UHGV virus genome: UHGV-1542943
DNA: 29,523 bases
Direction: 5' to 3' (one strand)
From: a virus
Numbering within the stretch: the first letter of the stretch is position 1; every line of letters starts with the position of its first letter. Shown here piece by piece: positions 11,619-14,541 of the stretch. The position numbers were made by a program, and so were the translations under genes. The notes under the pieces were generated by a model, which saw only the letters and a program-made list of their open reading frames with translations, had not been told where the DNA came from and made no database searches.

Positions 11619-13090
11619 CAGATGCAGCGTTATCTCCTGAAGAGCAGTTGATCGAGGATATTGCCGGATTCACTCATGATCCTCTTGGCTATGCCCTCTA
11701 TGCGTTCCCGTGGGGGGAAGAGGGGACTGAACTGGCACATGCCACAGGTCCACGTCAGTGGCAGGCCGATGCGTTCCGAGAGATACGTGATCACCTGCAG
11801 AATCCAGAGACGCGTTATCAGCCGCTTATGCTGGCACGTGCTTCTGGTCACGGTATTGGTAAATCCGCATTCATCTCAATGCTGATCAACTGGGGCATGT
11901 CCACTTGCGAGGATTGTAAGGTCGTGGTGACCGCCAATACCGACAACCAGCTACGAACGAAGACCTGGCCGGAAATTATCAAGTGGTCGAACCTTGCTAT
12001 CACGAAAGACTGGTTTACCTGTACCGCTACCGCGATGTACAGCAATGATCCTGGGCACGACAAGCGGTGGCGAGCTGACGCAATCCCCTGGTCTGAGCAC
12101 AACACTGAGGCATTCGCCGGACTACACAACGAGCGCAAACGCATCATCGTGGTATTCGATGAAGCGTCGAACATTGCGGATCTGGTGTGGGAAGTTGCTG
12201 AGGGTGCGCTTACGGACGAAGACACTGAGATTATCTGGGTGGCGTTCGGAAACCCTACACGTAATACCGGGCGTTTTCGCGAATGTTTCCGCAAATACAA
12301 ACACCGCTGGAAAACTGCGCAGATTGACAGCCGGACGGTGGAAGGTACTAACAAACAGCAGTTGCAGAAATGGGTTGATGACTACGGGGAAGACAGCGAC
12401 TTCGTTAAAATCCGTGTGCGCGGCATATTCCCTGATGCATCTGAATTGCAGTTTATCCCTACCGGTCTTACTGATGAGGCAATGAAACGGGTGGTAACCG
12501 CTGCGCAGGTGGCACATGCTCCGGTGATAATCGGTGTTGACCCGGCATATTCAGGCGTTGATGACGCGGTGATATACCTGCGGCAGGGGTTGCATAGTAA
12601 GGTGCTATGGACGGGCAACAAGACCACTGACGATCTGATTATGGCGAAGCGTATCGCTGACTTTGAAGACCAGTATCAGGCTGACGCGGTGTTCATCGAC
12701 TTCGGTTACGGAACCGGTCTGAAGTCAATCGGTGACGGCTGGGGGCGCACATGGCAACTTGTTCCGTTCGGTGGTGCGTCAACTGACCCTCAGATGCTCA
12801 ACAAGCGCGGGGAGATGTTCAACTCATGCAAGACATGGCTGAGGTTGGGCGGGATGCTGGATGACCAGGAAACAGCGGACGATCTGTCGGCGGCAGAGTA
12901 CAAAGTTCGTGTGGACGGTAAAATCGTTATCGAACCGAAGGAAGATATCAAAGAGCGTCTTGGGCGTTCGCCGGGTAAAGGCGATGCGCTACTGCTGACG
13001 TTTGCTTTCCCGGTGTCGAAGCGCCTGCGACTTCCCGGGCAGCAGAACCAGCAAGGCAAGGCGCTTACCGAGTACGATCCATATGCTTAG
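11615..13090 (+). CDS. Terminase large subunit
   Basis: 491 aa; Walker A-like ARASGHGIGKS, Walker B IIVVFDEAS, C-terminal nuclease-like region; GTG start overlapping the TerS stop. Confidence 0.85.
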   Translation: MTDAALSPEEQLIEDIAGFTHDPLGYALYAFPWGEEGTELAHATGPRQWQADAFREIRDHLQNPETRYQPLMLARASGHGIGKSAFISMLINWGMSTCEDCKVVVTANTDNQLRTKTWPEIIKWSNLAITKDWFTCTATAMYSNDPGHDKRWRADAIPWSEHNTEAFAGLHNERKRIIVVFDEASNIADLVWEVAEGALTDEDTEIIWVAFGNPTRNTGRFRECFRKYKHRWKTAQIDSRTVEGTNKQQLQKWVDDYGEDSDFVKIRVRGIFPDASELQFIPTGLTDEAMKRVVTAAQVAHAPVIIGVDPAYSGVDDAVIYLRQGLHSKVLWTGNKTTDDLIMAKRIADFEDQYQADAVFIDFGYGTGLKSIGDGWGRTWQLVPFGGASTDPQMLNKRGEMFNSCKTWLRLGGMLDDQETADDLSAAEYKVRVDGKIVIEPKEDIKERLGRSPGKGDALLLTFAFPVSKRLRLPGQQNQQGKALTEYDPYA

Positions 13091-13905
13091 TCTTTATTTT
13101 TATCCTCGAAACCTGATAATCCAGATAGAACACCAAAGTTATTAAAAACGTCTGGCTTACCAGATTTTAATCCGGATAAGTTGTGTTGCTCCAAAAAGTT
13201 GCTAATTGTTTGGCCGTTGCCAAGTGCAAGACTTTTTATTTGAGGTTTTTCAGGGTATTTGAGTTTGTATTCGTCGAAATCATTTTGGAGGGTCTTATAT
13301 GCCTCATTCATTCTTCCCAGAGTTTCCGATATCTCTTTTAATGAATGATTTAGAGCTGCTAACTGAGCACTGGCGGATCTCAATTCGTCATCTTTAGCTT
13401 TCAACTCGGCAGTCAATTCCCCCATACTATTCTTTGATCGAATAATCTCTTCTTTCATCTCTTGGATGTCTTTTTCCGCGCCAGTCTTAACTTTGTCGTA
13501 TGTAACATCTTTTTTAGCCAATAACCTCTGCAGTCTGGTTTCACGCTGGATTTTTCTTGCCTTCAGGTGATTTTCGATTGAGTCATTATTATCAAGAGGC
13601 TTTGCTTGCCATACGTTAATGATATTGTTTACCCATGGTAATAGGCAGCAGATAGCAATTACAGATAAGCATGGATAAAACATAACAGTTTTCCATGTGC
13701 TGTTATCTGAGATATATGAAATTTTATCTATTATGTTTGATTTGCTAAAAAATAGATAAAGAATTGATTTCCAGTTGAAGGCGCACCAGGACATAACAAA
13801 AGCACCAAGCACAGGGTTTTTGGCTCGATTCACGGCAGTATTGGCAGTAGATAAAAACAGCTCTTTGAACGATTCAAACATGCTAATTACCTTGAAGTTT
13901 TTCAT
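13087..13905 (-). CDS. AT-rich cargo gene: membrane protein (two predicted TM helices) with a long C-terminal coiled coil
   Basis: About 272 aa from ATG at 13905 (alternative ATG at 13881); hydrophobic segments VLGAFVMSWCAFNWKSILYLFF and VMFYPCLSVIAICCLLPWVNNIINVW, then a K/E/L-rich heptad region. Visibly AT-rich against its flanks; convergent with and overlapping the TerL stop. Confidence 0.55.
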   Translation of the reverse strand: MKNFKVISMFESFKELFLSTANTAVNRAKNPVLGAFVMSWCAFNWKSILYLFFSKSNIIDKISYISDNSTWKTVMFYPCLSVIAICCLLPWVNNIINVWQAKPLDNNDSIENHLKARKIQRETRLQRLLAKKDVTYDKVKTGAEKDIQEMKEEIIRSKNSMGELTAELKAKDDELRSASAQLAALNHSLKEISETLGRMNEAYKTLQNDFDEYKLKYPEKPQIKSLALGNGQTISNFLEQHNLSGLKSGKPDVFNNFGVLSGLSGFEDKNKD

Positions 13906-13909
13906 GATT

Positions 13910-13924
13910 ATACCTTTAAGGTAA
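13910..13924. promoter_or_regulatory. Near-perfect operator ATACCTTTAAGGTAA overlapping a promoter-like element for the cargo gene
   Basis: On the minus strand reads TTGATG...TTACCTTAAAGGTAT-AAT with a TATAAT-like -10; if this promoter is used, the ATG at 13881 is the more likely start. Confidence 0.45.
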
Positions 13925-13940
13925 TTTGCGGTCATCAAGC

Positions 13941-13964
13941 AAAAAAATGCCCGGCGAACCGGGC
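13941..13964 (-). terminator. Rho-independent terminator between the tRNA and the cargo gene
   Basis: Hairpin GCCCGG-cgaa-CCGGGC with a T7 run on the minus strand. Confidence 0.6.
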
Positions 13965-14127
13965 GAACTGGAAGCAATGAGTTATGCCTTCCGTGGCTGT
14001 ACTGGTTTACAGCATGAAGTCATCGCAATGGCGTCCTGCTGTAAAAAGGGCGGTGATAGTCCTTCAAGGGAAACCATCACCGCGAAGCACCTGGAACTTC
14101 TGGCATCACGGTCCTTAGGCGTGATTC

Positions 14128-14204
14128 TGGCGTGGCATGCAGGATTCGAACCTGCGACCAACCGCTTAGAAGGCGGTTGCTCTGTCCAACTGAGCTAATG
14201 CCAC
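14128..14204 (-). tRNA. tRNA-Arg, anticodon UCU (reads AGA)
   Basis: 77 nt, folded by hand: acceptor stem GTGGCAT/ATGCCAC, D-stem GCTC/GAGC, anticodon stem ACCGC/GCGGT with loop CTTCTAA, T-stem GCAGG/CCTGC with loop TTCGAAT, discriminator G, encoded CCA. Confidence 0.85.
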
Positions 14205-14526
14205 AACGCTGAGAGCACTTAGCCTGTTAATGCGCCACACTTTGTCGCAGCTCCATAAATGCTCTCATCGTTGTACCCTCGTCTCTTCCGAGGCGTCACA
14301 CCGAATCGCCGGGATGGTGAATCCCCGTGCGCGGAATAAAACCGCTCGACTTGCACATTCCGGCTACCTGGTTCGTTTGCCCGAGCAAGGGAGGGTGCCC
14401 CTTAAACGTATCCTGACCGCTATCGGCGCATGTGCCATACGCCGTACTGCTCAAAATAAAAGCTCACTCCACCTGTTCAATTTAACGACAAGCCAGTCAG
14501 GTTAATAACCGGAATGAACCATTTAC

Positions 14527-14541
14527 TTACCCTAAAGGTAA
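14527..14541. promoter_or_regulatory. Operator TTACCCTAAAGGTAA (perfect)
   Basis: About 90 bp upstream of the 14632 gene; followed by GGTAATAAT. Confidence 0.6.

Follow-up and report, generated by a model that had tools for sequence, protein, structure and literature searches.

We analysed a 29,523-nucleotide stretch of viral DNA (UHGV virus genome UHGV-1542943; hereafter the window), with emphasis on the interval that follows the gene for the large terminase, TerL. Gene order and nucleotide identity mark the window as a phiV10/epsilon15-type (Uetakevirus) prophage of Escherichia coli at the 3' end of guaA. The interval is bordered on the left by terL (11615..13090, plus strand; a 491-amino-acid (aa) open reading frame (ORF), called terminase in E. 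coli PAR) and on the right by the 5' remnant of a gp3-like small gene (14632..14779, plus strand). Between them, on the minus strand, lie an unannotated structured RNA of ~253 nt (14201..14453), a tRNA-Arg(UCU) (14128..14204) and an AT-rich gene for a 264-aa membrane-anchored long-helix protein (13087..13881). This interval is an accessory ('moron') slot between terL and the gp3-like/portal genes that varies in content among Uetakevirus genomes, and it carries two leftward transcription units. The first runs from a candidate promoter through the 253-nt structured RNA and the tRNA-Arg(UCU) to a terminator; the second consists of a terminator, a promoter and the 264-aa protein gene, the stop of which abuts the terL stop. 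The most novel element of the interval is the RNA, not the protein. We hold this anatomy, namely the slot, the two units, their operators and a deletion separate from the slot, with high confidence.

The terS and terL genes showed 96-97% nucleotide identity to phiV10-group phages by BLAST. The closest complete relative was the guaA-adjacent prophage of E. coli PAR (locus L002), which was 99.7% identical across 12900-14779; the PAR prophage and the window were largely collinear from int to the end of the PAR locus, the deletion excepted. The gene order, comprising integrase (246-1496), recombination genes, a cI-like repressor, replication genes, TerS, TerL, internal/ejection proteins and tailspike, agreed, as did the nucleotide identity, with assignment to Uetakevirus. 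Integration of phiV10-type phages through attP at guaA has been described (PMC9782041). After terL, the PAR prophage, phiV10 and other relatives have at least one leftward cargo gene, tRNA-Arg, ~430 nt without a conserved gene, the gp3-like gene, and then the portal, protease and major capsid genes; the tRNA-Arg follows the slot cargo in many relatives, not in all. The cargo differs at the same slot in phiV10, Tyrion, VB_ST_E15 and a Klebsiella phage. In the window, the GC content was 0.36-0.40 over 13100-13999 as compared with 0.53-0.57 in the flanks, and that of the ORF itself was 0.37 as compared with ~0.52 for its neighbours. A preliminary description of the window had noted an AT-rich minus-strand gene convergent with terL. 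This was confirmed, including the drop in GC content; the end of the ORF at 13087 lies 4 bp inside the TerL stop codon, the two stop codons overlapping by that length.

Subsequently, the region beyond the tRNA, initially described as about 320 bp of non-coding DNA of normal GC content, was examined. A stretch of ~330 bp was indeed devoid of a conserved ORF; however, it encodes the structured RNA, which is conserved in three phage groups and extends with its 3' end, GUUGUGG, over the first 4 nt of the tRNA. The RNA unit comprises a ~75-nt leader, a conserved core and a long 3' helix (GUACAACGAUGAGAGCAUU ... AAGUGCUCUCAGCGUUGUG) that encloses a tip. This tip was 36 nt here, and across ~190 full-length copies the tips fell into ~33 unrelated clusters of 10-135 nt. 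The tRNA directly followed the GUUGUGG end in 63 of 193 copies; in the other copies a ~120-nt stretch followed instead, and ARAGORN called no tRNA in these tRNA-less 3' extensions. Some lineage-specific tips (L177, L262, L043, L192 and L247) had tRNA T-arm-like hairpins (GCGGTTCGATTCCGC, GCGGTTCGACTCCGC, GTCCGTTCGATTCGGAC), which hints at a tRNA-derived or tRNA-mimicking module. Upstream of the RNA, a candidate promoter of the RNA-tRNA unit was read at 14526..14563 (minus strand), with the -35 element TTGACA at 14563-14558, a 17-bp spacer and a weak -10 element, TACCTT, at 14540-14535. An operator (CTTACCCTAAAGGTAAT, 14526-14542) covers this -10 element and the start site.

The minus strand of the element folded better than shuffled sequence, with a z of -3.9 as compared with -2.4 for the plus strand. 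The proposed, hand-refined structure, consisting of five ordinary helices (one of them in two segments) and two pseudoknots, was tested on an alignment of 52 sequences (A6), using controls in which the pairing partners were slid and 500 shuffles. Paired cells accounted for 97.2% with the proposed partners and for 29-47% with slid partners. Compensatory double changes occurred at 23 pairs (157 cells), as compared with 6-15 pairs (12-38 cells) in the slid controls, and none of the 500 shuffles reached the observed values. Covariation thus supports five helices and one pseudoknot in the RNA. This pseudoknot joins the loop CACC with a downstream GGUG and covaries as AACC/GGUU and GGUC/GACC. The second, GCACAU/AUGUGC, was invariant and was proposed from the sequence only, and both of its strands also lie within the search patterns. 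In a smaller alignment, 96 of 892 paired cells (~11%) were G.U; because such pairs would be A.C mismatches on the other strand, the minus strand is the sense strand of the RNA. Compensatory changes, strand-specific G.U pairs and the lack of a coding signal were accordingly all found, as is general for structured non-coding RNAs. Rfam 15 returned only the tRNA over 3 kb at E<=1 and nothing over 276 nt at E<=10, and the core sequences, searched as strings, had no match in the literature. The variable tip had antisense matches of at most 12 nt, equal to the sense control, in the window and in ~10 kb around 65 different copies. An idea that the element is an ERIC/REP repeat was rejected, as the resemblance extends to only 10 nt. 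A retron or other RNA linked to reverse transcriptase was likewise rejected; there was no reverse transcriptase gene nearby in any of the three phage contexts.

When 13940-14640 was compared by BLAST, the part 14201-14445 was ~80% identical to intergenic, unannotated DNA of two unrelated phage groups. In CPS-53/PhiR40_1-like lambdoid prophages (L011 3310-3900; L013 4001-4240), the RNA precedes yfdP and directly follows the cI terminator or a ParA-like gene. It occupies the rex/nutL position there, and the tRNA-less ~120 nt and a strong terminator follow ahead of yfdP. A segment of the CPS-53-like copies, GUUGUGGU, was able to pair with a downstream ACCACAAC. In P1-like phages and plasmids and in D6 (L014 2996-3176; L012 3445-3670), the RNA is located immediately 3' of a tRNA-Ile and upstream of ban/dnaB. 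In L014, a P1-like plasmid, ~50 nt separate it from the start codon of ban (dnaB), and a perfect C1 operator was found ~3 kb upstream, likewise on its strand. The 3' helix is missing from typical P1-like copies; D6-type copies keep the helix with a short tip. Among 5,426 complete E. coli genomes, 1,840 matched an RNA-containing query; 554 of the matching places were on plasmids, P1-like ones included, and no annotated feature lay under the match in 40 sampled rows. Exact-core scans of viral contigs gave at least 120 matches in each of two scans. When one genome per species was searched, the RNA was found in Citrobacter, Pseudescherichia, Escherichia species and Candidatus Erwinia dacicola; it was also present in Klebsiella phage ST512-KPC3phi13.3 and Enterobacter phage Tyrion.

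The gene of the second unit was then considered. The preliminary description had its coding sequence begin at 13905, and the gene is annotated elsewhere as 272 aa from that position. The true start is 13881 (M9 of that frame), giving 264 aa, and neither 13905 nor 13977, because all aligned homologues and the phrog_4780 profile begin at M9 and because the -10 element of the promoter (13912-13907) leaves the ATG at 13905 no room. An AAGG lies 8 nt upstream of 13881. The protein matched phrog_4780, a family of unknown function, over its full length (residues 9-272 against profile positions 1-267 of 275, E 6e-137). In an alignment of 31 sequences, in which every homologue starts at M9, residues 1 to ~160 were highly conserved with 58 invariant columns, and the remainder was not alignable between groups. 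An exhaustive search with the N-terminal 165 aa as the query gave 1,442 representatives at 50% identity (E<=1e-3). Nearly all hits listed had the conserved domain at or near the N-terminus, total lengths being ~200-500 aa, and Pfam searches of ten distant, longer relatives gave no informative fused domain. All named members were from Enterobacterales and were called 'hypothetical protein'. The initial statement that no family could be recognised was therefore right with regard to curated families and wrong with regard to catalogued ones, phrog_4780 being among the latter.

An AlphaFold2 model built from a 139-sequence alignment had a predicted local distance difference test (pLDDT) value of 85.9; an earlier 31-sequence model at pLDDT 63.6 was too poor for use. 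The model consisted of helices at 2-20, 23-35, 37-45 and 50-60, a single uninterrupted helix at 63-208 (~146 residues) and a disordered tail at 209-264. A strong transmembrane (TM) segment was predicted at 66-88 (Kyte-Doolittle 2.15), and a first hydrophobic segment at ~24-45 was marginal (1.23). The near flanks of the second segment (TM2) were net-negative on the C-terminal side. Of the two TM helices and the long coiled coil described initially, the long helix and the membrane anchor stood, and only the second hydrophobic segment is a strong TM helix. Homology and structure searches, which had been proposed as a check, identified no known structural or lysis protein. The best matches in PADLOC-DB v2 (DndD at 6.7e-05, LmuB and JetC) covered only residues ~105-258 and were to the coiled-coil arms of SMC-like proteins, and Foldseek against BFVD with the 31-sequence model gave no match.

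Homologues were found in the same TerL-adjacent slot, as had been suggested as a further check. A 246-aa allele with 51% identity and a different C-terminus sits at exactly that place in other E. coli uetakevirus-like prophages, sometimes together with phiV10 p03/p04-like genes. A 240-aa relative was found in an unrelated Klebsiella prophage (L010), where it separates the replication genes from the late genes and is on the strand opposite to most of its neighbours. In Klebsiella phage-plasmids, relatives at 31-34% identity have parA-like genes on one side and tail genes on the other, and they too are on the opposite strand. Placement opposite to the phage neighbours was thus seen in at least three unrelated phage backbones. 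Because of the allele exchange, the lone opposite-strand placement and the unrelated backbones, we regard the ORF as a mobile single-gene accessory cassette. As in morons, it has a predicted promoter of its own, is present or absent between adjacent genes and deviates in base composition. A downstream terminator of its own was not found, for which the 4-bp overlap of the stop codons leaves no room; only an insulating terminator upstream was present. In addition, Klebsiella IncFIB/HI1B plasmids carry an IS1-truncated homologue of the N-terminal domain (L148 5001-5309), which adjoins a cyclic-oligonucleotide-based antiphage signalling system (CBASS) operon (SAVED, nucleotidyltransferase and ThiF) and a DUF1778/GNAT toxin-antitoxin pair, a weak guilt-by-association with defence.

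A sigma-70 promoter of the ORF was predicted at 13907..13935 (minus strand), with the -35 element ATGACC at 13935-13930, the -10 element TATAAT at 13912-13907, 10 of 12 consensus positions and a 17-bp spacer. An operator-type palindrome (TATACCTTTAAGGTAAT, 13909..13925) overlaps the spacer and four bases of the -10 element. Upstream of the promoter, a terminator-like hairpin (GCCCGGTTCGCCGGGC followed by seven T; 13942..13964, minus strand) would insulate the ORF from the RNA-tRNA unit. Both the terminator and the operator-controlled promoter had been reported initially, and both were recovered, the former as the hairpin with a T-run at 13964-13949 and the latter as a palindrome over the predicted promoter that recurs throughout the window. 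When the whole window was scanned for TTACC-N5-GGTAA with at most one mismatch, 16 sites of the palindrome ATTACC-N5-GGTAAT were obtained, as compared with 0.49 expected by chance and a maximum of 2 in 100 shuffles. The sites are at 189, 5247, 5309, 6021, 6069, 6406, 8352, 8414, 10990, 11008, 13910, 14527, 24352, 25419, 25512 and 26633. The cI-like gene has two of them downstream (5247 and 5309) and two upstream (6021 and 6069), between which a degenerate third was seen by eye; a further one is at 6406. Other operators, single or paired, precede int, a DUF1064-like gene, terS and the tailspike gene, lie at both leftward slot promoters, or occur in the divergent region adjoining a Bro-N antirepressor gene. 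The operators occupy essentially every intergenic or promoter region of the prophage. Enrichment of one palindrome in the cI/cro divergent region and at other promoters marks a repressor-operator regulon, and we infer that the palindrome is the operator of the phage repressor.

The cI-like repressor (194 aa; 5381-5965, minus strand) has two helix-turn-helix (HTH) domains, a YdaS-like one at 21-61 and HTH_3 at 106-147; because both are in one chain, a monomer could read both half-sites of the palindrome. In phage ZX5, overexpression of the phiV10-type repressor reduces holin and endolysin transcripts by >99.9% (PMC9782041). The position of the operator over the spacer and the -10 element points to repression, not activation, and in its home genus the ORF is probably silent during lysogeny and expressed during the lytic cycle. 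The block of -35 element, operator and -10 element was kept upstream of divergent E. coli alleles (L003-L006) and in Klebsiella L010, and was absent in Cronobacter. At the RNA unit, the Salmonella phage VB_ST_E15 keeps both TTGACA-17-TACCTT and the operator. In phiV10-type phages, each transcription unit, including those of the accessory cargo, appears to be silenced directly, which suggests a design of 'one repressor, many operators' like that of P1 C1, rather than the antitermination control of lambda.

The tRNA-Arg(UCU) claimed in the preliminary description was verified: ARAGORN and Rfam (RF00005, 73.3 bits against a cut-off of 29) confirmed the cloverleaf and the anticodon, and the CCA end is encoded. 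In E. coli, AGA and AGG are among the rarest codons (roughly 1-3 per 1000). Of every 1000 codons in the prophage genes, 8.9 are AGA and 7.3 are AGG, and AGA encodes 4 of the 8 arginines of the ORF. Because this use is high as compared with E. coli, codon supplementation is an ordinary and sufficient explanation of the tRNA. The RNA-tRNA unit is closed by a terminator-like hairpin with a 13-bp stem and a T-run (14040..14083, minus strand), equivalents of which follow the RNA in the PhiR40_1 and Citrobacter copies. The 150 nt between the tRNA and the insulating terminator of the ORF (13978-14127, minus strand) contained several hairpins (z -3.3), of which only the first is terminator-like, and were kept with the tRNA unit in a Citrobacter metagenome-assembled genome. 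Elsewhere in the window, two low-GC plus-strand genes, 22656-23507 (0.37) and 25547-26275 (0.43), are rich in AGA codons and gave no informative match in Pfam, and probably represent further accessory prophage cargo.

The slot had originally been described as an insert where portal and capsid genes are expected. A variable slot after TerL is present; the loss of the portal and capsid genes, however, is due to an unrelated deletion of 7,324 bp, and the deletion and the AT-rich insert are separate matters. In the alignment, 10274-14779 of the window corresponds to L002 11375-15880 and 14774-21449 to L002 23205-29880. The junction (14774..14779) has a 6-bp microhomology, TTACCG. The gp3-like gene, which in PAR is 207 nt and precedes the portal gene, is collinear with PAR up to 14779, where it runs into the junction. 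The lost segment begins inside this gene, includes the portal gene and ends in the last part of a gp12-like tail gene of 2,472 nt, the C-terminal fragment of which remains at 14780..15479 (plus strand) according to the ORF list and the comparison with PAR. A 97-aa ORF at 14632-14925 is a chimera made by the deletion.

From these results, the following course of events is proposed. In the lysogen, the repressor would occupy its operators, and both slot units would fire only upon induction or fresh infection. The first unit would then yield a stable folded RNA, the 3' end of which would be formed by RNase P cleavage of the abutting tRNA and the lineage-specific tip of which would serve as a specificity or peripheral module; the tRNA would provide AGA decoding for AGA-rich phage genes. 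The protein of the second unit would insert in the inner membrane via its conserved N-terminal helical module, with a stalk of ~120 residues and the disordered tail projecting. The N-terminal module would be a constant anchor or effector, and the exchangeable C-terminal half would set specificity. We infer the inner-membrane location, the modular reading of the protein and the RNase P end of the RNA. As to its task, the protein may take part in phage-against-phage conflict in the lytic window, by blocking the entry of a second genome or by aborting the infection of a competitor; we put this role forward tentatively, as somewhat less than probable. The whole statement, anatomy and proposed mechanism together, falls just short of being probable in our judgement. 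A bolder version is more doubtful still: the RNA would represent a new class of phage RNA, physically joined to a tRNA or to a tRNA-like 3' domain and with a lineage-specific module presented by its long helix, and would act in trans on a target of the host or of a rival phage (for instance by decoying tRNA-directed defences or by serving as an RNA specificity factor) early in the lytic cycle of Uetakevirus, P1-like and CPS-53-like phages, and the neighbouring protein would found a new exclusion or abortive-infection family switched to the lytic window by the repressor.

Several observations weigh against the proposed course. Repression in the lysogen was deduced from promoter geometry alone, and the promoter of the RNA unit was read from the sequence, its -10 element being poor and below the threshold of the promoter scanner. 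Since coiled-coil sequence drifts fast, the variable C-terminus of the protein may reflect weak constraint, not specificity. As TM1 is marginal, the topology is ambiguous, and the ~120-residue stalk could be periplasmic or cytoplasmic. Scans with Pfam, NCBIfam and PADLOC gave coiled-coil noise only, a profile search of PDB sequences gave nothing beyond such noise, and Foldseek of the 139-sequence model against PDB gave no fold match (E of at least 2.6); in Pfam, NCBIfam, PADLOC, PDB and BFVD, no protein of exclusion, abortive infection, defence or lysis and no structural protein was matched by homology or fold. In Cronobacter sakazakii (L007-L009 6001-6846; 157 blocks of the collection), a 281-aa homologue stands by itself in the chromosome, flanked by lacI and a gene for a short-chain dehydrogenase, without phage context and without the operator. 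Furthermore, VB_ST_E15 (L147 2860-2920) has only the first ~60 nt of the RNA, followed by a terminator region and no tRNA. This arrangement looks like a natural deletion of the RNA-tRNA unit, so that the unit is accessory and was dispensable for this phage.

The protein might instead be a classical superinfection-exclusion or abortive-infection protein that is expressed constitutively by the prophage, like P22 SieA or HK97 gp15. The moron anatomy, the AT-richness and the placement on the opposite strand would be expected of such a protein, as would the predicted inner-membrane anchor, and the truncated copy beside the CBASS operon and the toxin-antitoxin pair points in the same direction. In Klebsiella L010, moreover, the operator of the cassette was the only such site in the 12.7 kb examined and the cI/cro region was without any, so that expression there would be unrepressed. 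In the home genus, by contrast, the operator lies over the spacer and the -10 element, and the same operator is found at the antirepressor gene and on both sides of the cI-like gene; the predicted repression in the lysogen is the opposite of what a classical prophage-expressed exclusion protein would show. The protein matched no PADLOC family, and the SieA motif FxRYPxEAxxFNK was not noticed in its translation, no motif search having been made. We consider lysogen-expressed exclusion unlikely. Similarly improbable, in our estimate, is a lytic-cycle housekeeping accessory, such as a membrane tether, a lysis-timing or i-spanin-like envelope factor, or a helper for the entry or exit of the phage's own genome. 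Its expression only after derepression, as predicted here, would suit this role; a TM helix running into a single helix of ~120 residues resembles an i-spanin or tether, and the net-negative C-terminal flank of TM2 fits a periplasmic stalk. However, the gene is absent from phiV10, the epsilon15-like VB_ST_E15, Tyrion and other viable relatives, which have unrelated cargo in the slot. It also lies outside the lysis cassette, has no embedded same-strand ORF of at least 40 aa that could be an o-spanin partner, and occurs alone in a bacterial chromosome.

Alternatives to the RNA and to the deletion were weighed likewise. The block at 14205-14450 might instead be a DNA site, or the plus-strand 91-aa ORF (14230-14505) a real gene; in favour of this, 8 of 19 aligned copies have the plus-strand frame open over the whole element. 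Codon-position and frame tests nevertheless rejected this ORF, and also a minus-strand 52-aa ORF, as genes. For the 91-aa ORF, substitutions were distributed evenly over the codon positions (17/20/13 and similar), and the frame was broken or shifted in the D6-like, Erwinia, E. whittamii, Tyrion and other copies. The G.U pairs, which become A.C mismatches on the other strand, also speak against these readings, as do the 23 pairs with compensatory changes, the loop-to-downstream pseudoknot included, and we regard both alternatives to the structured RNA as very improbable. As for the missing portal and capsid genes, the junction query was covered by at least 80% at no place in any of the 5,426 complete E. 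coli genomes, while 527 of them had partial matches, most with its halves at separate places. Since the portal-to-tail block is deleted and the junction occurs in none of these genomes, the prophage is defective or, with lower probability, misassembled. The separate halves would agree with an artefact of assembly or cloning; on the other hand, the clean 6-bp microhomology and the flanks collinear with PAR at 98.6-99.4% identity are typical of illegitimate-recombination deletions in decaying prophages, and the collinearity with PAR of the remainder, from int to the end of the PAR locus, speaks against an artefact as well. We judge an artefact quite unlikely, and prefer a genuine defective prophage.

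The structured RNA, found in well-studied genomes, extends the short list of structured phage RNAs by a concrete and testable case, and it may help to explain why phages retain particular tRNAs. The regulon of 16 operators, with a logic nearer to P1 than to lambda, shifts the view of moron timing, in that slot cargo may serve the lytic window and not the lysogen. The membrane-stalk family, unannotated throughout its 1,442 representatives, is a good candidate for phage-conflict screens.

Among known systems, the nearest are the other morons of the Uetakevirus slot (phiV10 p03/p04, Tyrion gp03/53/54 and the DUF2829 gene of a Klebsiella phage), which share the position, the leftward orientation, the flanking genes, the AT-richness and a promoter of their own. 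Their cargo proteins are unrelated to the one described here, the promoter of which is wired to the repressor operator; this operator accompanies the cassette into a Klebsiella prophage. T4 Imm and Sp and T5 Llp are lytic-phase exclusion proteins made after infection, which act at the envelope against secondary infection and are not known to have a long coiled-coil stalk. The proposed likeness to them concerns the timing after infection or induction and the envelope. The i-spanins of the lambda Rz type have an N-terminal membrane anchor and a long helical or coiled-coil stalk and are expressed in the lytic cycle; the present protein likewise has a membrane anchor followed by a long helix and a predicted lytic expression. 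It differs in that its gene lies outside the lysis cassette, between terL and the tRNA, with no same-strand ORF of at least 40 aa inside or adjacent, in its extra conserved N-terminal helical module of ~60 residues, and in its absence from viable sister phages. P22 SieA is a prophage-expressed inner-membrane superinfection-exclusion protein of 162-164 aa with three predicted TM helices and the motif FxRYPxEAxxFNK (PMC10883804). Like SieA, the present protein is a small phage-encoded, and by prediction inner-membrane, product of a single gene with several divergent sequence types. Unlike SieA, it has 264 aa with one strong and one marginal helix and a 146-residue helix, shows no sequence relation and has a promoter that looks repressed in lysogeny.

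Phage RNAs that are made with tRNAs or by RNase P include T4 species 1/2, P1 c4 and P4 CI, and large tRNA-adjacent ones are GOLLD and ROOL. The RNA described here resembles these in being phage-encoded and structured and in abutting a same-strand tRNA gene, because of which tRNA processing would define its end. It matches no Rfam family, C4, GOLLD and ROOL included, and differs in its length of ~250 nt, in a core with one pseudoknot supported by covariation and another proposed from invariant sequence, and in a long 3' helix with ~33 tip clusters. STnc6030 of the prophage BTP1, expressed in the lysogen, excludes superinfecting phage by antisense pairing to late genes (PMC7067206). Both are prophage-borne non-coding RNAs, and a role in phage-phage conflict is proposed for the present one as well; it is, however, intergenic, has no antisense match of more than 12 nt to its own neighbourhood and is distinguished by a conserved tertiary-type fold.

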